Origin: an uncultured Clostridia bacterium
GTDB lineage: Bacteria > Bacillota > Clostridia > UBA1381
Length of the DNA stretch: 64,000 nt
Direction of reading: 5' to 3'
Assembly (NCBI GenBank): GCA_947628515.1
Contig: CANRAG010000002.1
Coordinates: forward strand, 458-64,457
Numbering within the stretch: position 1 is the stretch's first letter; each line of letters starts with the position of its first letter. The notes under the pieces are model-generated. The model was not told the origin of the DNA and did no database searches. It was given only the letters and a program-made list of their open reading frames with translations. Position numbers and translations under genes: made by a program. Of the stretch, positions 16,572 through 44,856 are shown piece by piece.

Positions 16572-16606
16572 AAAAAAAAAACGGCGCCGGGGGATTTTCG
16601 GCGCCG
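16572..16606 (-). terminator. Rho-independent terminator for the 629-aa gene / small-ORF transcript
   Basis: CGGCGCCG (16582-16589), a 9-nt loop, CGGCGCCG (16599-16606). The plus-strand A10 run at 16572-16581 gives a U10 tail on the minus-strand RNA. It is convergent with the plus-strand terminator 25 nt away. Confidence 0.7.
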
Positions 16607-16690
16607 CGTGTATTACAAGCTTATAATTTAATTATACTATCCGCAAGGACAGCGCGGGGATTTTGGATGCGTTGTCCCGAATGGATCTGT

Positions 16691-16855
16691 TTAGAATGTT
16701 ATTGTAACCTTTACAGCATCCGAACCTGCAGCAGCTATTAAACCGTCTACATAGGAATTAGCCTCTCCAACGTCTGTGCTCTCGACACCTGATGCTGTTA
16801 TAACATTCTCCATCTCAAACATGGAGATATTCATAATCGGATTTTCAAATTTCAT
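16691..16855 (-). CDS. Small acidic ORF P1 (54 aa), unknown function; paralogue of the ORF at 31850-32023
   Basis: Not in the track (<60 aa); I translated it by hand as MKFENPIMNISMFEMENVITASGVESTDVGEANSYVDGLIAAAGSDAVKVTITF. AGGAGG sits 9 nt upstream of the ATG. The ORF starts 19 nt after the stop of the 629-aa gene and is followed by the terminator at 16572-16606. Its N-terminal motif and C-terminal I-T-aromatic end are shared with P2. Confidence 0.5.
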   Translation of the reverse strand: MKFENPIMNISMFEMENVITASGVESTDVGEANSYVDGLIAAAGSDAVKVTITF

Positions 16856-16874
16856 AATTATCTACCTCCTGTTA

Positions 16875-18764
16875 TTATTCCAACGTTACCTTTACTGATG
16901 TAACATCCTCTACGTTTCCTATCACAACGTATACCAAGACCGAACCATTGCCTGTCGCGATAGTGGGAAGGCTTACCTCACCCTTCTTGTCACCCTGACT
17001 GGTACTTGTTGCCGTAGCTACAATCTTTGTATATGAAGCATCCGCGCTTATACCGTTGACTGTTGCCTTCCAGACAGACGCATGGTCGCCATTTGTTGTG
17101 AAGTCCCTATCATGTTCAGCCGATACCGGTTCGGGCGTCACAACCGGAGGCTCATATTCACCGGTCTTTTCTATCATAACATAGTCGATGGTGTCCGTTG
17201 CGTCATTAGTGCCTTGTCCGCATATTTTTACGGATGTGCTATCTTCCGTTACGGTAAACGTCAACTCGTGAACTTTATCATCGTTACCGGTTGTTTTCGC
17301 AACATCCTCGTCGTTTATAACAATCTTCTCGCCGCGATGATTAGTTCCGCTGCCGGCCTTGGCCACAACGCTTATATACGCCTTGTACTCGCCCTTATTC
17401 AACGTTACGGTACCAATCGGTGTGTGTGCGCTATCACCGCCATATACTGCCGCTGTACCATTTGAATATGCCGTGTTTGTTCCGTTTTCTTTATCACAGT
17501 CATTGAAGTAAACAATGTTTTCGGCAGCGGTATTATATTCAACGGTATACTCGTTTGAATCCGCCAATGTAACCTGCTGTCCGTATGTGCTTGCGTCTGA
17601 TACATACCACTGATTATCAACTTTCAGATATTTCGGGTAATAATATGTCATCTGCTCGCCAACGTATTTATCCTCTAAGGTTCTTGTTGCGGAATCCGCG
17701 TTTAAATCGGTTTCGTTATCCTTATAGTTAACCTTTATGTTTGATACCTTATTATATTCTGTCTTGGTGAAATACAAACTGATTTCATTCTCGTCCGCAG
17801 TTACCGACGTTTTATTTTTCTGATTTTCACTGTCGTACTTATATACAGTTTTTACGTCCTCGCGTTTTTCAAAGTCCTGTGTATACTTGCTGTCAACAGT
17901 ATAACCTTCTCCTGCCGTTACTTTTTCGATGACTGAATCTATTAACTGATCCTCGCAATAACGCTTAATAGTTACATCACGTGCCGACTGACCTTCTATA
18001 TTGGTTATCTTAAGGTCATCAAATAAGCAATATCTATCTCCATTATCATAATTCGACCCAACCTCGAAAGATGTAACAGCACCTGCATCAGCGACTAAAT
18101 CACCTGTATACGAACTGTTGCCAACTTTAGCGGAGATCTTCTTTGTTGCATAATCCAATGTAATATCAAAATTAACTTTTTTAGCCCAATCCGCGCCATT
18201 GTTAGTATTTGAACCGTTAAAGTCACTTATCGCTATTCCAAGCGAATTTTCGGAAAAACTTGACTTATATGTATCCGCTCTTAAACTTACAAGTTTAGTT
18301 GAATCGGAATAAATATAAAAATGTGTAAATTTGCTACTCAACGGTCCCCATGCCATGTTGAAGTTTACATTAACTTTGTCTTTGGTTGTATCAATCTGTA
18401 ACGCAGCGGGAATACTAACCGTTCCTGTGGCATTTGGCAAAAGCAAATGATTTAGTCCGGCAGAATGCTTATTAGGATCTTTACCAAGCTTTATCTCATC
18501 TGTGGATATGTTATTTGAAACTGCAAGACCGCCTGTGAAATTACCGTCACCGTCTTGATATGTATATCCGTCAATTTCTGCAGACTGCAAATCCACAGTA
18601 TTGGCAAACGGAGATCCGGAATCGGTATCGCCAAAGTCTATACCAACAATCTGACCGTATTTGCTGGTTAGAGCTTCCGCATAACTTGTAACTGCAAGTC
18701 CCGTGAACACAGAACCCGCGACTGCCAACGCCGAAACGGCGCTGACCAACTTTTTAATGTTCAT
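16875..18764 (-). CDS. Secreted adhesin-like protein: signal peptide, jelly-roll (LamG/CBM-like) domain, MucBP-like repeats, CBM-like domain, short Pro-rich linker, ~85-aa C-terminal domain
   Basis: 629 aa. Signal peptide MNIKKLVSAVSALAVAGSVFTGLAVTSYAEA. ...GDRYCLFDDLKITNIE resembles the end of a lectin-fold domain. Repeats such as VTIKRYCEDQLI... and IKVNYKDNETDL... follow. The C-terminus ...ASVWKATVNG...GNGSVLVYVVIGNVEDVTSVKVTLE loosely resembles the C-terminal domain of the 602/625-aa proteins. The gene is visibly more AT-rich than its flanks. Confidence 0.7.
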   Translation of the reverse strand: MNIKKLVSAVSALAVAGSVFTGLAVTSYAEALTSKYGQIVGIDFGDTDSGSPFANTVDLQSAEIDGYTYQDGDGNFTGGLAVSNNISTDEIKLGKDPNKHSAGLNHLLLPNATGTVSIPAALQIDTTKDKVNVNFNMAWGPLSSKFTHFYIYSDSTKLVSLRADTYKSSFSENSLGIAISDFNGSNTNNGADWAKKVNFDITLDYATKKISAKVGNSSYTGDLVADAGAVTSFEVGSNYDNGDRYCLFDDLKITNIEGQSARDVTIKRYCEDQLIDSVIEKVTAGEGYTVDSKYTQDFEKREDVKTVYKYDSENQKNKTSVTADENEISLYFTKTEYNKVSNIKVNYKDNETDLNADSATRTLEDKYVGEQMTYYYPKYLKVDNQWYVSDASTYGQQVTLADSNEYTVEYNTAAENIVYFNDCDKENGTNTAYSNGTAAVYGGDSAHTPIGTVTLNKGEYKAYISVVAKAGSGTNHRGEKIVINDEDVAKTTGNDDKVHELTFTVTEDSTSVKICGQGTNDATDTIDYVMIEKTGEYEPPVVTPEPVSAEHDRDFTTNGDHASVWKATVNGISADASYTKIVATATSTSQGDKKGEVSLPTIATGNGSVLVYVVIGNVEDVTSVKVTLE

Positions 18765-19042: not shown

Positions 19043-19232
19043 CTGTAACTTAATATCCGCCGCCAATCCCTTTACGGCGGATATTACCACACTTTTATTA
19101 TACCCCCAATCCCATGGACATGTCAATTAGTCTTTATGCACAAAATGGAATGGAGTTTTTGTATACTTCTGACAAAATCCCCATTCCTGTGTATCTTAGG
19201 TATGTGCACATGAAACATGCGTTACCCACGCC

Positions 19233-31645: not shown

Positions 31646-31800
31646 AAAAAAACTCCTTTATGTATAATTTACTCATAAGCGCGTAAGCTTCCCGCCAAAC
31701 GCACTCCTTTAATACTTGCTTCGCTTTAGATTATATACCGGTTTCCCGTCAAAATCAACATCAAGAAAACAACTTTTCAGAGAAAAATCCAAACTTATAC

Positions 31801-31833
31801 AAAAACGCCGTATCCAAAAGATACGACGTTTTT
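31801..31833. terminator. Bidirectional rho-independent terminator
   Basis: AAAAACGCCGTATC-CAAAA-GATACGACGTTTTT: a 10-bp stem (one mismatch/wobble) flanked by A5 and T5. It lies 17 nt downstream of the stop of small ORF P2. Confidence 0.6.
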
Positions 31834-31849
31834 GTATATGTATCAGTAA

Positions 31850-32023
31850 CTACCATGTTATGATATATGAATTTAGTTGAAAATTTCCGTCCTCAGCAGG
31901 CTTGTAGCCTTCCAATTCTTCCGGAGCCGCAAGCTTAACGGCGCTTTCCGTTATTATGTTCTCACTCCCAAAGCTCTTTATGTCAAGAACGGGCGCATTA
32001 TATTTTTTCATATTGTCTTTCAT
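31850..32023 (-). CDS. Small acidic ORF P2 (57 aa), unknown function; paralogue of the ORF at 16691-16855
   Basis: Not in the track; I translated it by hand as MKDNMKKYNAPVLDIKSFGSENIITESAVKLAAPEELEGYKPAEDGNFQLNSYIITW. AGGAGG sits 9 nt upstream of ATG 32023. The ORF starts 18 nt after the stop of the 602-aa gene and a terminator follows. Confidence 0.5.
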   Translation of the reverse strand: MKDNMKKYNAPVLDIKSFGSENIITESAVKLAAPEELEGYKPAEDGNFQLNSYIITW

Positions 32024-32041
32024 AGTCTCTGTCCTCCTAAA

Positions 32042-33850
32042 TTATTCAATCGTGAATGTGGCCTTAACATCTGCCGGCGCGCCAAGAAGTATTACCGAAA
32101 ATACCGCGTTGCCGCCTTGCATATTACCTATTTCAAAGGTTTTCTCAAGCGTCTTGTTATCGGTTTCGCTTGTGAAAACGCCCTTAAACGATTTATGTGA
32201 AAGATCCACTGTCACATCCCAGAAATATCCCGCGTTACTGCTATCATCATCTGTCTTTACGACCTCTTTCCGGTCGGATTGGCCTATATCCGGCGTTGCA
32301 GTCGGCTCCGCCGTGGGCGTAGGCGTCGGGGTCGCCTCCGGCCAGCCTGACGCCGGAGGCGGAATCTCGTCCGTCTGATACGCCGTCATAGAATGAATTT
32401 CCCAGTTTACGGTCGTGGGAATCTCCATCACGCCGTCGCCTTCACCAACATTGAAGTCATCACGCTGCGGGATCGCAACAGGCCAGAGCCTGAAATTACC
32501 CGAGCCATAATTCTCAATAGTTGTTAAATCCTTATTGCTGTTTTCGTCTATGCTATAATCCGCTCCGTCATAGCTGTAATAAGTTTTTGCGCATTGTGGA
32601 TTTTTTTCATTGCCGTTTGGTGAGATAATAAAACGCATGGTATGCATTTTATCCTTGTCGGCTTCAACAATCTGCTTTCCCCTCCACGTCATACCATTGA
32701 CTTCACTGATACAGCTTCCCTCATGGGTAAGCTTAAGACCTATATACGGAGACTCTGCTGAATAATCCTCAAGAGAAACTTTAAACCGCACATCAAGCAC
32801 AATATTCTTATTCGTTACAAAGCGTTCGCCCGGAATCTTAAATGTTGTTTTGTATTCGCTCGCTTTCTTTTGCTCAACCTTTATCGGCGCGTCCGACACG
32901 GTTCTCGGCTTGTCCGAATAAACCCTTGTCGCTCCGCCTGTGCCGAAAAATGAAACGTCAATACTGCCCTCCTGCTTGATTGTGCTTATAGAGTCGTCAA
33001 AATATTTTTTATCGCTCAAATTAAGGATATACTCCTTGTCCGTCTCCGACGGGGTCGGCGTCGCCTTCGGCGGCTCGGGTATCTTGTCCGTTTGGTATGC
33101 CTTAAACGAGTGGAATTCCCAATTTACCGGCGTGTCAAGCACAGATCCATCGTCTGTATTATGTTCGTCTCTGCCTCCGCTCGGTATTGATGTCGGCATA
33201 AACCTTAACTGCGCGGTTTCATCATTTTCTGCAACATAGCCCCAGTTTACCGCGGTCTCCGCAACAGCGCCGCCGGTTTTTGTCTTGTAATCCGCGCCGT
33301 CAAGACTGTATTTCACAACGGCTTTTCCATCCTCCTTGCTTAACACATAGCGCATATGATGCAGTGTATCTTTCTCACTCTCCTTGAGCTGAATTCCTCT
33401 CCATTCCATGCCGTCGCAATTGACCAAGTTATTTGATGTGTATAATCTCAGTCCTATATACGGTGACGGCTGAGCATAATCGTCAAGATATACCTTAAAC
33501 TCAATGTCAACTACTGTGTTCTGTGCGGTTGAAAATGCCTTTGCTTCTGTCCAGAAAGTGCCCTTCCAGTCCGACATCTTTTCCTGTTTTACCTTAATCG
33601 GTTTGTCTGTATCCTTCTCCCAATCTTCACAGGTTATGCTTGAACCTTCACCTCCGTAATAGTAGAGATTTGCGCTTCCTTGCTGCGTAGTTGTATTGTT
33701 TGTATGGTTAAAATACTTTGCGTCACTGATATTAAGAATATAATTGGGCTCCTCCGCCGACGCAAACGGAATGTACAGCGAAACGAGCATGGCGGCGCTC
33801 AAAAATGCCGCCAATATTCTTTTACGGTACTTCTGTGTCATGTTTTTCAT
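32042..33850 (-). CDS. Secreted protein: signal peptide, two copies of an unassigned ~220-aa module, PT-rich linker, conserved ~85-aa C-terminal domain
   Basis: 602 aa. Signal peptide ...SLYIPFASAEE. The modules are marked by YILN(I/L)SD.KYF..., ...FKV.L.DY...SPYIGL(R/K)L... and VNWE(F/I)(H/Y)S(F/M).AYQTD. The linker is PEATPTPTPTAEPTATP. By eye about two-thirds identical to residues 1-500 of the 1142-aa protein at 41428-44856. Confidence 0.8.
   Translation of the reverse strand: MKNMTQKYRKRILAAFLSAAMLVSLYIPFASAEEPNYILNISDAKYFNHTNNTTTQQGSANLYYYGGEGSSITCEDWEKDTDKPIKVKQEKMSDWKGTFWTEAKAFSTAQNTVVDIEFKVYLDDYAQPSPYIGLRLYTSNNLVNCDGMEWRGIQLKESEKDTLHHMRYVLSKEDGKAVVKYSLDGADYKTKTGGAVAETAVNWGYVAENDETAQLRFMPTSIPSGGRDEHNTDDGSVLDTPVNWEFHSFKAYQTDKIPEPPKATPTPSETDKEYILNLSDKKYFDDSISTIKQEGSIDVSFFGTGGATRVYSDKPRTVSDAPIKVEQKKASEYKTTFKIPGERFVTNKNIVLDVRFKVSLEDYSAESPYIGLKLTHEGSCISEVNGMTWRGKQIVEADKDKMHTMRFIISPNGNEKNPQCAKTYYSYDGADYSIDENSNKDLTTIENYGSGNFRLWPVAIPQRDDFNVGEGDGVMEIPTTVNWEIHSMTAYQTDEIPPPASGWPEATPTPTPTAEPTATPDIGQSDRKEVVKTDDDSSNAGYFWDVTVDLSHKSFKGVFTSETDNKTLEKTFEIGNMQGGNAVFSVILLGAPADVKATFTIE
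32083..32189. repeat. Direct DNA repeat copy 1 (C-terminal-domain coding segment)
   Basis: A 107-nt stretch that differs at only 2 positions from 33922-34028. Similarity extends over about 32045-32335 vs 33884-34175. Confidence 0.9.
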
Positions 33851-33880: not shown

Positions 33881-35758
33881 TCATTCAACTGTGAACTTGG
33901 CCTCAACATCTTTCGGCGCGTCAAGAAGTATTACCGAAAATACCGCGTTGCCGCCTTGCATATTATCTATTTCAAAGGTTTTCTCAAGCGTCTTGTTATC
34001 GGTTACGCTTGTGAAAACGCCCTTAAACAAATCATGCGAAAGATCCACCGTCACATCCCAGAAATATCCCGCGTGACTGCTATCAGCTGCTGTTACGACC
34101 TCTTTACGTTCGGGTTGGACTATATCCGGCGTTGCCGTTGGCGTAGGCGTCGGTTCAGCTGTGGGCGTCGGGGTGGGTTCCGGCTCCTTATTGCCGCCGT
34201 CCGATTTGATCGAAACATCGTCAAGCATGATGTAGTTATTCAACATATTACTGGGCTGACCAACTTTTAATATCGCTACGGTTACGGTATCCTTCTCATC
34301 TGAACTCATTATTGTTCTTATAAGCGCGTCATCGCGCGCCGTAACATCAATCGTCTCACCATTTATATTGAAATTTATTTTACCCTTTGCCACATCGTAC
34401 TCAATCTTAACGTCACGCCATTCGCCAAACTCCCAATTTAATGTTTTTTCCGATGTTGTTCCCGAACTCAAAACTTCCCCTGCGTATACGGGCGGCCATA
34501 TACTTCCTGAGCTCTTCATTTGTCCGTGTACTACTGGATCTACTGTACCCACCGTGTCTTCAAACGTAAGTATTCTGTCTGCCGGGGTTGTTTTCGCATC
34601 TTTGAAAAACACGCCTTCTTCGGTTCCGTCCGCTATATCTACAGACAAATCATACTTACGCACTCTCTCCCAACCGTCTTTTTGATCAAATCCGTCCGGG
34701 TCTGAAATCAAAGCCTTAAAACTTATTTCGAGCTTTTCCTTAGGCTTCTTCACGGTGTAGCGCACGGCGCTGTCAAAACTTTGCTCGTCGGATCCATGTC
34801 CCCTTGTACTTTTAAGTATCTTATTTGACGGGTTTTTCGGATCCTTTTCAACAATTGTCTGATAATTTATAGCGCTGAAACCACCTGAATAGTTTCCTCG
34901 GCTTATCAATCCGCCTGTTCTTATTCCGTTTTGCATCGGAGCCATTCCCACCGTGTCCGCTTCAAAATCGCTCCCCGCCTCGTTGGTTATTTCATTCTCG
35001 TATCTGTACAGTCTGAAATTATCAAAATACACGTCCCCCGTGGTAAGCATTTTAAGTATTATCTTAACAGGATTCTCTAAATTCAAACCGTTATAGTTCT
35101 CGAGGTCAAAGTATGCCTTATCATATGTCTGTGGATTGGCAGCAGACGCCGTATAGTTCAGTCTGCCTTGCCAATACATGGTGAGCTTTGTGCTATTCGA
35201 AGCAAAATTGCTGAAAATCATTGTATTAGGTATCCAAATGTTAGGATAATTAGCAACCCAACCGTCGTTAATTTTTTTATCATCGACAATAAATACATTG
35301 CTTCCATCGTATTTTATCAATCTAATTTGTTTCTCCTCCTGCTCCACGATAATTTCAAAACTCGACAAGTCGGGGTCTTGGTGTCTTAGTACGGAAAAAT
35401 CGAACGCAAAGTCTTTTGGCAGCGTTCCGTCGTAAAGCGTAACTGCGTTTTCCTCGCCTTTCTCCGCAGCGGACAGCTTCAAAACATGATTGGCTTTGTC
35501 CGTCTCAAAAAGCGCGTTATACGCGTCATCAGTTTTTATTTCGACAAACGAGCTTCCCATCGGTGAGGAAACTATTTCCGCCGACAAGTTCCCGCTTGTA
35601 TCCGGCAGCTGTCCGTCCTCAAAGTCACGAATCATAAACACAGGATCCGCCACCGCGGGATTATCCGCCACCGCGGCAAACTGCGGGATTAGAGAACACC
35701 CTATAGCTGCCGCCGCCGCGAGAGCCGTCAATTTGAATTTTTTCATTTTCTTTCTCAC
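33881..35758 (-). CDS. Secreted protein: signal peptide, jelly-roll/CBM-like domains, PT-rich linker, same ~85-aa C-terminal domain as the 602-aa protein
   Basis: 625 aa. Signal peptide MRKKMKKFKLTALAAAAAIGCSLIPQFAAVA. Lectin-fold-like strand ends are visible (VYFDNFRLYRY, IMLDDVSIKS). The C-terminus EPTPTPTAEPTPTPTATPDIVQPERKEVV...AGYFWDVTVDLSH...NMQGGNAVFSVILLDAPKDVEAKFTVE is nearly identical to the 602-aa protein. Confidence 0.8.
   Translation of the reverse strand: MRKKMKKFKLTALAAAAAIGCSLIPQFAAVADNPAVADPVFMIRDFEDGQLPDTSGNLSAEIVSSPMGSSFVEIKTDDAYNALFETDKANHVLKLSAAEKGEENAVTLYDGTLPKDFAFDFSVLRHQDPDLSSFEIIVEQEEKQIRLIKYDGSNVFIVDDKKINDGWVANYPNIWIPNTMIFSNFASNSTKLTMYWQGRLNYTASAANPQTYDKAYFDLENYNGLNLENPVKIILKMLTTGDVYFDNFRLYRYENEITNEAGSDFEADTVGMAPMQNGIRTGGLISRGNYSGGFSAINYQTIVEKDPKNPSNKILKSTRGHGSDEQSFDSAVRYTVKKPKEKLEISFKALISDPDGFDQKDGWERVRKYDLSVDIADGTEEGVFFKDAKTTPADRILTFEDTVGTVDPVVHGQMKSSGSIWPPVYAGEVLSSGTTSEKTLNWEFGEWRDVKIEYDVAKGKINFNINGETIDVTARDDALIRTIMSSDEKDTVTVAILKVGQPSNMLNNYIMLDDVSIKSDGGNKEPEPTPTPTAEPTPTPTATPDIVQPERKEVVTAADSSHAGYFWDVTVDLSHDLFKGVFTSVTDNKTLEKTFEIDNMQGGNAVFSVILLDAPKDVEAKFTVE
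33922..34028. repeat. Direct DNA repeat copy 2 (C-terminal-domain coding segment)
   Basis: See 32083-32189: 105/107 identical, same orientation, 1839 bp apart. Confidence 0.9.
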
Positions 35759-35988
35759 ACCTCTTTCTGAAAAAATGAATTAAGTTTTAAGATAAATAAA
35801 ATTCCGAGTCGTTTTCCTGCAATTGTCTTGCAAGCTATGTTCATCCGACCTTTTTTATTATTTCTATTGTACCGCAGCGGAACGGCGCCGGTCAATGTCC
35901 AATATTTAACTTTTCGGCGGACACATTTAAACCTGTTTCGATAATTACGAGAATTTCACTTATTTTCAGGTCAATGCCAAACATTCGC

Positions 35989-41427: not shown

Positions 41428-44400
41428 TTATTGTTCAAGCCCAAATACGTCTGAAATCGGCGTCATCGATTTCGCGCTGTCCCACACGAACGCTTTCGCG
41501 GTACAGCCGCTGAGTCCGTCCGTGTTCAAGCTGCCCTTAAACGCGGTCTTTGTCAGACTCTCTCCGTCAAACTCCTTAATCTCCACATCGACCAGCCTGC
41601 CGCTTTCATCATAGAGCGCTACCGCCAGCGCGGCATGTTTTGAAACGGACGGGTGGTCGTTACGAACTCTTACGGCATAGTCTGCCGTATCACCCTTTAT
41701 GTCAAGCGTGCCGGAAACAATACGCAATGTGTCGTCGTCGTTTAGCTTGTACATCTTTATATAGTCAAAGTTCCAATATACCGATGTAACGAGATCCGTC
41801 TCCGCGTCGCCGTCGTTTGACATATTATCGTCAGCGGGACATACGTTCATATATAGTCTTATTCCGTTTTCAAATAACGCGTTTGTATTAAGGTTGTCGC
41901 ATTTGAACTCGTTTATAAGCCTTCCGTCCGATATTGTATAAACCTTGCCGGTTACGGGGTCTATAACAAATTTCACCGTGCGATAGCCGTCGTCAGCTCC
42001 GGGCGTATATATCTCCGCGCTGACATTTGAGTTGGCGTAAATATTGAAATTGGTCAGAGCCAACGCCAGACGCGCCTTCGGCGAAGCGCCCGTTTCGTAG
42101 TCGTCAAGCGTCACCTTGTATCTTGACTCTATCACAATGGGCTTGTCTATCGCTATAGTTGCGGGCGCGGGCGTAAGGACTTGGAGATACCCGCCCCAGA
42201 TCGACTTCTTCTGCTGTCTTACAATAAAGACATCGCTTGTGCTGCCCGACATTACGCCCGACGTCGAATTGAGCATTCCGCCGCCTTCCGTTATCGCTCC
42301 CGCTTGATCGTTTACCGTTATATTATCGTCTATATCCAGAATATATGAGTCCGCTATAAACGGTTTTTCCTCGGCCTCCGCTATGACATTTGTCGAAACC
42401 GTCTCTCCCGCCTCTATCGGGGTGGGAACACCGTCAACATTTGCCCACACCGTTATATCCGACGGATTGTACAGCTTTACTCCGTCCGGCGCGTTTGTTA
42501 CGGTAAGCTGACGGCACGCCGTTACGTAATCGACAAGCTCTATTGTAGTCGGATTCCATATGGTATCGCTGTTGTCCTCAAGATATTTGGCAAATATCTC
42601 GAACTTATCCCATATATCGCCTCTCGGCTCATCCTCATCCGCGCTAAACTGCCAGGCGTGACCGGCAAGGAAAAGCATCTTCCATTCGGACGAGGCGTCC
42701 AGAGCCTTAAACTCATCCATGAATTTCTCGGTCGTTCCGTTTTGCCAATCTCGTTCCACAGACACCCAACCTGTCGGGTTCAAATCATAGAAGCTTGCCG
42801 GAACATCATATTTACCGGTCATTATGCAGTTTCTCGCGTATCTGTAGCCCACGCTCTGAATTATGCCGAGCCTTACAGGGTCCGACGACGCGCTGCACGC
42901 GTACGGGTACGCCAATCCGCCTATCGGGCTGCCCCAATTGTTATCAAGCGTTGTTTTGGATAGCTCCAGTTCTCTTAAAAACTCGTCGTTGGTCGCCTCG
43001 TCAAGCTGAGGATGAGTGTTGCTGTGCGATGCAACCTCCATGCCGGCATAGTATTCTTTTAAGTTCTCCAAAGTTCTGGGCGCGTAATTGCCCGGTACTA
43101 TATTAAATGTGGCCTTTGCATTATGCCGACGGAGAATTTCTATCGCTTTCAAATCTTGGTCAACACACCAGTCAGCGCCGTCGTCAAGGCTTATCACCGC
43201 CGCCTTCATCTTACCGTCCGGGTACGCTCTTACTATACTGTCTTTGAGTTCGGACGGGATCGGTACCGCTGTCGGAACGGGGTTTGCCGTGGGATATTCC
43301 TCATTATCCGTGCCCGTGATCGGGTCGGGAATATCATCCGTCTGATACGCCGTCATAGAATAAATTTCCCAGTTTACGGTCGTGGGAAGCTCCGCCGTGC
43401 CGTCGTCCGTGCCAACGTTAAAGTTCTCGCCGTTCTCGCCTCTGTCTTTCGGGATTGCAACAGGAGCCAATCTGAAGTTCAAACCGTCTCCGCCGTCGTC
43501 ACTCTGCCCGTAATTAGCTATTGTTGTAAGATCCTTCTCGCTTCTGTCCTCAATAGAATATGCCGCTCCGTCATAGCTATAGTAAATTCTCGCGCAGTTC
43601 GGGTTTGTTTCGTTGCCGCTTGACGCTATAACGAACCGTACCGTATGCATTTTATCCTTTTCCTTTTCGGTAATCTGCCTGCCCTTCCACGTCATACTGT
43701 TCGTTTCGTTGATATAAGTCTTTTCGTGGAACAGTTTAACTCCCACAAACGGTGAGTCCTTTGTATAGTCCGCAAGCGAAACCTTGAACTTCACATCGAG
43801 CACGATATTTTTATCGGTTGTGAAGCCCTTTCCCGGGATTTTGAATACGGTTTTATATTCGCTCGCTTTCGTTTGCTCAACCTTTATCGGCTCGCTCGAC
43901 ACGGTTCTCGCGGCGTCCGAATATACTCTTGTCGCCCCTGTCGTGCCGAAGAAGGAAACCGTTTCGCTGCCGGTCTGTGAAATCGTATTGTTCGTATCGT
44001 CAAAATATTTTTGGTCGCTCAAATTAAGGATATACTCCTTGTCCGCCTCCGACGGGTCCGGCGTCGCCTTGGGCGGCTCGGGCTCCTCGTCCGTTTGGTA
44101 TGCCTTAAATGAGTAGAATTCCCAATTTACCGGCGTGTCAAGCGGAGTTTCTCCATCTACTATTTCGCCGTCTCTGCCCACGCTCGGCAAGGACACAGGC
44201 ATAAATCTTAGCATCGCCGTGTCGCCTCCGTCACCGTCACGTCCCCAGTTTTCCGCGTCCGCCGGAATAACGGGATCGCTTATAACGGTCGTTTTATAGT
44301 CCGCGCCGTCAAGACTGTATTTTATGGCCGCGTTACCGTCGCCGTCTTTGGAAAATACATACCGCATATGATGACGCTTATCCTTCATGCCGCTTGTGAG

Positions 44401-44856
44401 CTTCATACCGCGCCATTCCATGCCGTTACAATTTATGTAATTATTTTTCGTATACAGTCTTAATCCAACATACGGCGACGGCTTGGAATAGTCGTCAAGG
44501 TATACCTTGAACTCGATATCGACCACGGTATTCTTGTCAACGGAAAAATTCTTCGCCTCCGTTTGGAACGCGCCTTGCCAGTCCGACATGATGGTTTGAG
44601 TTACTTTAATCGGCTCGTCGGATACCTTATCCTGGCCGTTTGAGGTTATACTGGATCCCGGGCCTCCGTAATAGGATAAATCCGCACTGCCATCCTGCGT
44701 GGTTGTATTGTTTGTATGGTTAAAAATCTTTGCGTCACTGATGTTAAGAATGTAGTCACCGTCAACGGCGAGAGCCGCAAGCGGCGTGAATGCGGAAATA
44801 AGCATTGCCGCGCCCACCAATGACGACAATATTCTCCTACCGTATTTTTGTGTCAT
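41428..44856 (-). CDS. Secreted 1142-aa protein: two N-terminal unassigned modules (paralogous to the 602-aa protein), CE4 polysaccharide deacetylase (NodB) domain, a third divergent module, C-terminal Ig-like domain
   Basis: Signal peptide ...FTPLAALAVDG. The CE4 motifs are VISLDDGADW (TFDDG-like), ASHSNTHPQL (H-S/T-x-x-H) and LAYPYA. The third module is marked by YKVTLDDYETGASP...VYWNFDYIKMYKL. The C-terminal region is ...LAVALYDESGRLV...AKAFVWDSAKSMTPI. Confidence 0.8.
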   Translation of the reverse strand: MTQKYGRRILSSLVGAAMLISAFTPLAALAVDGDYILNISDAKIFNHTNNTTTQDGSADLSYYGGPGSSITSNGQDKVSDEPIKVTQTIMSDWQGAFQTEAKNFSVDKNTVVDIEFKVYLDDYSKPSPYVGLRLYTKNNYINCNGMEWRGMKLTSGMKDKRHHMRYVFSKDGDGNAAIKYSLDGADYKTTVISDPVIPADAENWGRDGDGGDTAMLRFMPVSLPSVGRDGEIVDGETPLDTPVNWEFYSFKAYQTDEEPEPPKATPDPSEADKEYILNLSDQKYFDDTNNTISQTGSETVSFFGTTGATRVYSDAARTVSSEPIKVEQTKASEYKTVFKIPGKGFTTDKNIVLDVKFKVSLADYTKDSPFVGVKLFHEKTYINETNSMTWKGRQITEKEKDKMHTVRFVIASSGNETNPNCARIYYSYDGAAYSIEDRSEKDLTTIANYGQSDDGGDGLNFRLAPVAIPKDRGENGENFNVGTDDGTAELPTTVNWEIYSMTAYQTDDIPDPITGTDNEEYPTANPVPTAVPIPSELKDSIVRAYPDGKMKAAVISLDDGADWCVDQDLKAIEILRRHNAKATFNIVPGNYAPRTLENLKEYYAGMEVASHSNTHPQLDEATNDEFLRELELSKTTLDNNWGSPIGGLAYPYACSASSDPVRLGIIQSVGYRYARNCIMTGKYDVPASFYDLNPTGWVSVERDWQNGTTEKFMDEFKALDASSEWKMLFLAGHAWQFSADEDEPRGDIWDKFEIFAKYLEDNSDTIWNPTTIELVDYVTACRQLTVTNAPDGVKLYNPSDITVWANVDGVPTPIEAGETVSTNVIAEAEEKPFIADSYILDIDDNITVNDQAGAITEGGGMLNSTSGVMSGSTSDVFIVRQQKKSIWGGYLQVLTPAPATIAIDKPIVIESRYKVTLDDYETGASPKARLALALTNFNIYANSNVSAEIYTPGADDGYRTVKFVIDPVTGKVYTISDGRLINEFKCDNLNTNALFENGIRLYMNVCPADDNMSNDGDAETDLVTSVYWNFDYIKMYKLNDDDTLRIVSGTLDIKGDTADYAVRVRNDHPSVSKHAALAVALYDESGRLVDVEIKEFDGESLTKTAFKGSLNTDGLSGCTAKAFVWDSAKSMTPISDVFGLEQ

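Follow-up and report, generated by a model that had tools for sequence, protein, structure and literature searches.

The mini-genes and the exported proteins of the window

The window analysed here is a 64,000-nt stretch of contig CANRAG010000002.1 from an uncultured Clostridia bacterium, and the two genes of interest, P1 and P2, lie on its minus strand, together with all the individual window genes and signals that are placed by coordinates below. P2 (31850-32023) encodes a 57-aa mini-protein (KYNAPVLDIKSFGSENIITES ... YIITW) that is a divergent member of its family, and P1 (16691-16855) encodes a 54-aa mini-protein (MKFENPIMNISMFEMENVITAS ... VKVTITF) that is a typical one. Both had been picked out in an earlier reading of the letters alone, here called the sequence-only reading, and both are intact open reading frames with positions and translations exactly as quoted there. 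As that reading had it, each is preceded by an AGGAGG ribosome-binding site 9 nt before the ATG (32033-32038 for P2 and 16865-16870 for P1) and starts closely behind the stop codon of the upstream large gene, with a measured gap of 18 nt for P2 and 19 nt for P1. It had further placed an intrinsic terminator behind each mini-gene, and a hairpin with a T-run was indeed found in both cases: a 20-pair stem followed by a T-run (31796-31838), 12 nt past P2, ends the second of the two operons described below, and the succession GGCGCCG, 9-nt loop, CGGCGCC and T10 stands at approximately 16572-16607, ~80 nt past P1. The latter terminator was read by eye, given that the loop limit of the terminator scanner is 8 nt. 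The description of the two genes as unannotated is true only of the annotation track used in that reading, since identical sequences are already public among the NCBI and ENA gene calls.

The similarity between P1 and P2 is confined to the N-terminal 24 residues (BLASTP E = 6e-6), where a shared motif had already been seen, and when the 64 kb were translated in all six frames, P1 and P2 alone contained the motif E[ND][VI][IV]T.S. Both mini-proteins are acidic (pI 4.65 and 4.05) and free of cysteine. Their maximal 15-residue Kyte-Doolittle values are 0.58 and 1.25, compared to 2.11 for the signal peptide of the 629-aa protein encoded upstream of P1, and the hydropathy and motif checks detected no Sec or Tat signal, there being neither a hydrophobic core nor an RR, in agreement with the original description; among the N-terminal 20 residues, P1 has three acidic ones and P2 has two.

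The first operon runs from a promoter-like site through the gene for the 629-aa exported protein (16875-18764) and P1 to the terminator. The 629-aa protein consists of a signal peptide, a passenger without known domains, a linker and a C-terminal domain (CTD; 16878-17132), which is the presumed partner of P1 and was modelled as six beta strands. The promoter-like site (19097-19126; TTGACA-18-TATAAT) is a perfect, 12/12 match to the sigma-70-type consensus, although a consensus match only, and lies ~330 nt upstream of the start of the 629-aa gene. The second operon begins with another promoter-like site (35866-35895; TTGACC-18-TACAAT), again a consensus match only, and continues with the genes for a 625-aa exported protein (33881-35758) and a 602-aa exported protein (32042-33850), followed by P2 and the terminator. 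The 602-aa protein comprises a signal peptide, two passenger repeats of ~230 aa, a Pro/Thr linker and, as its last ~85 aa, a CTD (32045-32299) that is the presumed partner of P2. The 625-aa protein has a different passenger and no mini-gene of its own, but its CTD (33884-34138), detected as an HMM match, is near-identical to that of the 602-aa protein, such that one mini-gene stands behind both. In the window, only the 629-, 602- and 625-aa proteins match the CTD HMM (E = 1e-23 to 1e-25; next best 2.9), which bears out the proposal that the proteins upstream of P1 and P2 carry a related C-terminal domain.

The passenger of the 602-aa protein is built of a tandem module (EPNYILNISDAKYF...WEFHSFKAYQTD and KEYILNLSDKKYF...WEIHSMTAYQTD) with a Pro/Thr linker between the copies, and a search for a known domain in this duplicated module returned no match. 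The window also encodes a 1142-aa protein (41428-44856) that contains a polysaccharide deacetylase domain and no CTD but shares with the 602-aa protein the type of signal peptide and the passenger repeat YILNISDAK.FNHTNNTTTQ.GSA.L.YYGG, indicating that this module is used both with and without the cassette of CTD and mini-protein. The region 24946-63641 is rich in genes for glycan utilisation and surface proteins (GH3, GH38, GH88-like, GH130, a sugar ABC system, DUF4886, Peptidase_C69 and several SLH-domain proteins); hence proteins with the CTD and SLH-anchored proteins coexist in the same organism.

The mini-protein family and its upstream neighbour

The sequence-only reading had proposed a profile search for homologous small reading frames in other genomes, and such homologs are plentiful. 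A first profile search yielded 29 proteins, 29-59 aa in length. HMMER was then run exhaustively against 1.84 billion cluster representatives and detected 275 clusters (clusters at 50% identity) at E <= 1e-3, all of them stand-alone proteins of 39-86 aa, with lengths of 49-62 aa for nearly all. P2 itself is recovered by the family profile via a 93%-identical relative, P0002 (E = 1.8e-10), and close relatives found in word-indexed searches carry in-frame indels. The consensus N-terminus is M-K-[FY]-E-x-P-x-M-N-I-S-x-F-[ED]-x-E-N-[VI]-V-T-x-S-[SG], with the Pro, the Phe and one Glu essentially invariant; it is followed by a variable stretch of ~25 residues rich in Ala, Thr, Glu and Gln, and by a C-terminal strand with alternating hydrophobic residues (V-x-V-x-I-x-F, for example, AVKVTITF), in which the last residue is Phe in 108/166 members. 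The combination of a conserved N-terminus and C-terminal end with a variable middle, originally seen in two sequences, thus holds across the family. The N-I-S of the motif (in the window, for example, 16823-16831) is formally an N-x-S sequon for N-glycosylation, its residues being shared by 129 (Asn), 151 (Ile) and 135 (Ser) of the 166 members.

The named relatives are each listed as 'hypothetical protein' (MBQ3428119.1, MCH5212449.1) and come from metagenome-assembled genomes (MAGs) of Clostridia and Oscillospiraceae; matches to genomes fall in MAGs of Oscillospiraceae, unclassified Clostridia and Ca. Ornithomonoglobus, and a single MAG frequently carries at least two copies. Searches of the mini-protein against Pfam, NCBIfam, PHROGs, PDB sequences and Rfam returned no family match; a hit to the RIG-I C-terminal domain profile (E = 0.02) was discarded as a short chance resemblance and is not used as evidence. 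P2 spells the same motif with other codons, for example, AGC rather than TCC for Ser, which points to selection on the protein rather than on the RNA. Judged by these patterns of conservation, the mini-genes are real, conserved protein-coding genes.

The neighbourhood of the mini-gene was compared across 20 loci for which DNA was available, namely, 17 distinct pairs of peptide and neighbour and 3 divergent members that were deliberately chosen; the alignment-derived locus scan comprised 8 genome loci and 7 metagenome loci. At all 20 loci, the mini-gene is located directly behind a gene for a signal-peptide protein that ends in a beta-rich CTD, so that the strict synteny claimed from two cases holds wherever the upstream neighbour was recorded. 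The spacer between the two genes is 13-24 nt and includes AGGAGGT, and a terminator is readable past the mini-gene in many loci. Fusion of the mini-gene to the upstream gene by readthrough or frameshifting was considered and rejected, given that the gaps of 13-24 nt occur in all three frames and that the mini-gene has its own strong ribosome-binding site and ATG. The upstream proteins share a layout consisting of a Sec-type signal peptide, a variable passenger, a Pro/Thr/Glu-rich linker (in most loci) and the CTD. Most of the passengers lack known domains, the exceptions being a subtilase with Big_2, a CBM77 and a Big_2 protein. The other neighbours are unrelated housekeeping or carbohydrate-utilisation genes; no locus has a conserved neighbour other than the CTD gene, and no recurring maturation enzyme, peptidase or exporter was found near the mini-genes in the loci examined.

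Proteins with the CTD from different MAGs begin with a similar signal peptide, M-[NK]-x-KK-[FL]-[IV]-S-x-[VI]-SAL-x-IAASAFAG-[ML]-AVTASA, which has a long Ala/Ser-rich hydrophobic region. It is present in the 629-aa protein (window 18764) and at loci L008, L012, L014, L015, L020, L023, L024 and L027, and absent from the 602-aa, 625-aa and L010 proteins; it may mark a particular export class or reflect mere relatedness. At the divergent locus L039 (2389-4189), a 223-aa exported protein and a 299-aa exported protein with a distant CTD precede the mini-gene. The 223-aa protein resembles dockerins weakly, at E = 8e-4, which does not reach the Pfam cut-off, and a second dockerin protein is encoded nearby on the opposite strand, which hints at a link to cellulosome-like assemblies. 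Cohesin modules were also considered for the short upstream proteins of L039 and L041 but found no Pfam or PDB-sequence support.

The CTD itself is ~85 aa long and rich in beta structure, with the motifs [AS]-x-[VL]-[WFY]-x-A-T-V and G-x-A-x-[VI]-[FY]-x-[VI]-[VI]. In most loci, the CTD protein ends in Glu, otherwise in Asn, Asp or Lys, and this residue comes directly past a beta strand; the C-termini of the mini-proteins are mostly Phe, Tyr or Trp. The domain resembles dockerins, SLH domains and the C-terminal domains of type IX secretion in its setting, a signal peptide, a variable passenger, a Pro/Thr linker and a small shared C-terminal module, but none of those modules is known to have an obligatory downstream mini-gene, and type IX secretion is known only from Bacteroidota. 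Membership in the dockerin or SLH families was rejected because searches of 16 CTDs against Pfam, NCBIfam and PDB sequences gave no profile match, Dockerin_1 and SLH included. In the databases and literature searched, the mini-protein family, the CTD family and their gene arrangement are all undescribed.

Averaged over the 17 pairs, the N-terminal motif of the peptide shows 77% identity, its core 30% and the CTD 27%. Five locus pairs combine clearly related CTDs (53-67% identity) and cores (45-75%) with passengers at the background level of 19-26%; one of these passengers is a subtilase with Big_2 and the others have no known domains. Core and CTD distances are correlated (Mantel r = 0.73, p = 2e-4), a correlation that is driven by related loci and represents co-inheritance, not residue-level co-evolution. 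A strain variant of the P2 locus (L032, 89-616) encodes an upstream protein of 175 aa, reduced to a signal peptide, a short passenger remnant, a Pro/Thr linker and the CTD, and P2 still follows 18 nt downstream. The CTD and the mini-protein are thus co-inherited and move jointly, as a cassette, between unrelated passengers. The functional pairing of P1 and P2 with the upstream CTD that the sequence-only reading had proposed is accordingly strongly supported by the 275 clusters, the synteny at all 20 loci and a co-inheritance that is independent of the passenger.

Structure models and a candidate stem at the ribosome-binding site

The AlphaFold2 model of P1, derived from an alignment of 148 sequences (mean pLDDT 79.9, pTM 0.41), consists of a single helix (28-43) flanked by extended N- and C-terminal segments. 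With a lone helix and extended ends, the mini-protein is not a compact autonomous fold in this model and does not look like a protein with a self-contained fold; a Foldseek search with the model produced no match. The CTD of the 629-aa protein was modelled from an alignment of the three window sequences, and the best model, of low confidence (pLDDT 68.7; the other four 37-51), has six beta strands. Foldseek matched this low-confidence model to generic Ig-like sandwiches only (E >= 0.12). The six strands form in the CTD alone, and the model gives no sign of a missing strand.

At the RNA level, codons 9-13 of P1 (AATATCTCCATGTTT; 16817-16831) are complementary to the region of its own ribosome-binding site (16863-16874) and could form a Shine-Dalgarno-sequestering stem. 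The predicted stem of P1 has a dG of -11.7, compared to -5.0 for synonymous recodings; at the P1-type loci, the SD:anti-SD duplexes reach -11 to -17.6 kcal/mol, compared to -5 to -9 for synonymous recodings. At 14 of 16 related loci, the pairing ranks within the top 2% of the null distribution, although the loci are interrelated and these statistics are indicative only. In the P1-type subfamily, the N-I-S-M-F codons (9-13) are conserved even at synonymous sites; the pairwise difference is 0.35 at third positions versus 0.15-0.16 at the first two. In all three loci in which the F codon is TTC, a co-occurring G stands opposite it. P2 has no such stem. P1-type genes could, alternatively, form a mutually exclusive local hairpin, TCTCCAT-GTTTGAG-RTGGAGA, with equivalents in L006-L028 and none in P2. 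The stem of the P1-type genes could be a translational-coupling device that is opened by the ribosome terminating on the CTD gene.

Explanations for the pairing

The explanation that we favour, while giving it slightly less than an even chance, is that P1 and P2 are dedicated, co-translated partner subunits of the CTD, probably bound via added beta strands. Under this scenario, the mini-protein would bind the CTD, the C-terminal strand (such as AVKVTITF) and the N-terminal segment would probably add beta strands to the CTD sheet, and the variable helix would probably provide the specificity of each pair. In the P1-type genes, sequestration of the ribosome-binding site by codons 9-13 would ensure that the mini-protein is made only once a ribosome finishes the CTD gene, and such coupling would tie both the amount and the place of mini-protein synthesis to the CTD. 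The role of the resulting complex could lie in anchoring, assembly or stabilisation of the exported protein. Of the three options put forward in the sequence-only reading, a leader/core peptide, a dedicated partner or chaperone, and a strand-donating subunit, the second fits the evidence best; the third is compatible with the alternating hydrophobic residues of the C-terminal strand and with the extended termini in the AlphaFold2 model.

The closest working analogy is donor-strand complementation, as in chaperone-usher pilins, the type V pili of Bacteroidia and TasA fibres, in that a short segment with alternating hydrophobic residues from another polypeptide could complete an Ig-like sandwich. 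The analogy does not amount to membership. In those systems, another full-size subunit or a periplasmic chaperone supplies the donor, the two partners are both exported and the outcome is a polymer, whereas here the donor would be the product of a separate gene, 55 aa long and devoid of an export signal; neither by sequence nor by fold was a pilin match obtained for the mini-protein or the CTD. Furthermore, the contrast between 77% identity in the motif and 27% in the CTD fits a shared third component better than the binding of divergent CTDs, and counts against the explanation that we favour, as do the six strands that the low-confidence CTD model forms unaided and the lack of the Shine-Dalgarno-sequestering stem in P2.

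A variant that strikes us as possible but rather unlikely is a self-contained two-gene surface or assembly module of gut Clostridia, in which the signal-less 55-residue protein caps or completes the Ig-like CTD and couples, through its near-invariant N-terminal motif, to a shared machine. It also counts against the favoured explanation that the upstream proteins carry a Sec-type signal and the mini-protein carries none: a simple complex outside the cell would require a further export route for the mini-protein, or else the pair would have to assemble before export, in the cytoplasm. The arrangement poses the puzzle of how a peptide without a signal comes into contact with a protein exported by Sec.

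The composition of the variable core bears on this puzzle. The cores contain no Cys, 0.8% Arg and 0.2% His, with high Thr, Ser, Asn and Gln, and score a log-odds of +0.107 in the direction of exported proteins, with 99% of the cores above zero, all 19 cytoplasmic proteins below zero, independent secreted passengers at +0.06 to +0.14 and the conserved N-terminal motif at about zero, although short low-complexity segments can mimic an export-like score. Such a composition is weak evidence that the N-terminal motif may be a leader for an unlinked exporter and that the core would meet the CTD outside the cell.

The strongest of the rival explanations, albeit an unlikely one, keeps the mini-protein inside the cell as a private cytoplasmic escort, which would capture the CTD at the ribosome, keep it export-competent or hand it to a shared machine, and stay behind. 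An escort would be expected to be acidic and to lack a signal peptide or any hydrophobic segment, as is the case here, and the putative coupling and sequestration of the Shine-Dalgarno sequence would place its synthesis beside the nascent CTD, the last part of the exported protein to be synthesised. The conserved motif and the variable remainder could be taken for a common docking site plus a private cargo-binding part, and a single mini-gene serves the operon with two near-identical CTDs. In these respects, the mini-protein resembles the class I chaperones of type III secretion and VirE1, which are likewise small, acidic and signal-less, are each encoded beside a single client and are made in step with it. 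However, those chaperones have autonomous folds and serve specialised secretion systems, not Sec substrates, and no homology to them was detected in the NCBIfam, Pfam and PDB-sequence searches. The Sec substrates of Gram-positive bacteria are not known to need private chaperones. Moreover, the composition of the core matches that of the exported proteins of this genome, and no docking partner for an escort was identified.

An improbable explanation, in our estimate, is that the mini-protein is a leader-plus-core peptide, the first ~22 residues being a leader for an unlinked processing or export machine (such as a peptidase-ABC transporter or a RiPP enzyme that binds leaders through a dedicated domain) and the variable ~30 residues a core that would be freed to act as a signal, bacteriocin or modified peptide; the linkage to the CTD would then reflect co-regulation or use outside the cell. 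The difference between 77% identity in the putative leader and 30% in the core is the typical pattern of leader peptides, the motif ends in T-x-S-[S/G], and the core is export-like in composition while the leader is not. The leaders of lasso peptides contain YxxPxL followed by a Thr at -2, and the mini-proteins recall these and other RRE-dependent RiPP leaders by the segment [FY]-x-x-P-x-[LM]-x-[IV], itself probably a beta strand that adds to the sheet of a partner, and by an invariant Thr with a small residue ~10 residues further on, two or three residues before the Ser/Gly. The spacing of the motif is, however, offset by two residues, and no gene for an RRE, cyclase or protease was found near any locus. 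A lasso core should consist of 15-26 aa, start with Gly, Ala, Ser or Cys and have Asp or Glu at 7-9, whereas the cores of the mini-proteins are ~30-35 aa long, have no conserved acidic position and are helical in the model.

The likeness to double-glycine leaders, which rests on a leader-like region of ~22 residues that has no Sec features, an acidic, variable peptide poor in Cys and a Gly/Ser junction, fails in a similar manner: the junction is T-x-S-[S/G], the would-be -2 position is Ser in 114/166 members, and the leader lacks the hydrophobic -4/-7/-12/-15 helix pattern and is not helical in the model. No C39-peptidase ABC transporter is encoded in the window or the fetched contexts. More generally, neither the window within ~15 kb of the mini-genes nor three other 20-kb contexts (L008, L010, L012) contain a cyclase (Asn-synthetase-like or other), a radical-SAM enzyme, a leader peptidase or other peptidase, an RRE protein or an ABC exporter, such that a lasso gene context is lacking around P1, P2 and these three loci alike; no curated RiPP or bacteriocin precursor model in NCBIfam or Pfam matches the mini-protein even at E <= 10. 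The core offers no conserved Cys, Ser/Thr pattern or acidic position for ring formation, and the one neighbour that is conserved, the CTD, varies in sequence together with the core. Of the leader/core option in the sequence-only reading, then, the conservation pattern and the export-like core stand, whereas the enzyme or transporter nearby, the conserved modifiable residue and the match to a RiPP model are all missing.

Finally, it is highly improbable that only the act of translation or an RNA element matters (in 3' end protection, antitermination or a regulatory hairpin), a view to which the synonymous-site conservation of codons 9-13 and their pairing with the ribosome-binding site lend some colour, because 275 clusters retain the length of the reading frame, the amino-acid motif and a stop codon that directly follows an aromatic residue, P2 preserves the motif with quite different nucleotides and no stem, Rfam contains no matching family and control of a real gene is the better explanation of the stem. 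The remaining probability belongs to something outside the favoured explanation and these three rivals.

Should the module with a shared machine prove to be real, it would imply either a new leader-dependent route of export or processing, or the cytoplasmic pre-assembly of folded complexes of CTD and peptide; in either case, evolution would have grafted a portable pair, a tag plus a key, onto many passengers. A physical pairing would provide a role for a small-protein family of 275 clusters that is annotated as 'hypothetical' or missed altogether, and would place dozens of exported proteins without recognisable domains in a new domain family. The stem within the motif codons that may sequester the ribosome-binding site is a candidate example of enforced translational coupling, and the compact pair of CTD and peptide might lend itself to use as an orthogonal protein-tagging pair. 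Were the pairing physical, a small C-terminal domain that depends on a co-translated mini-protein of its own would represent a new modular way in which abundant but uncultured Clostridia of the gut and rumen equip their exported proteins.
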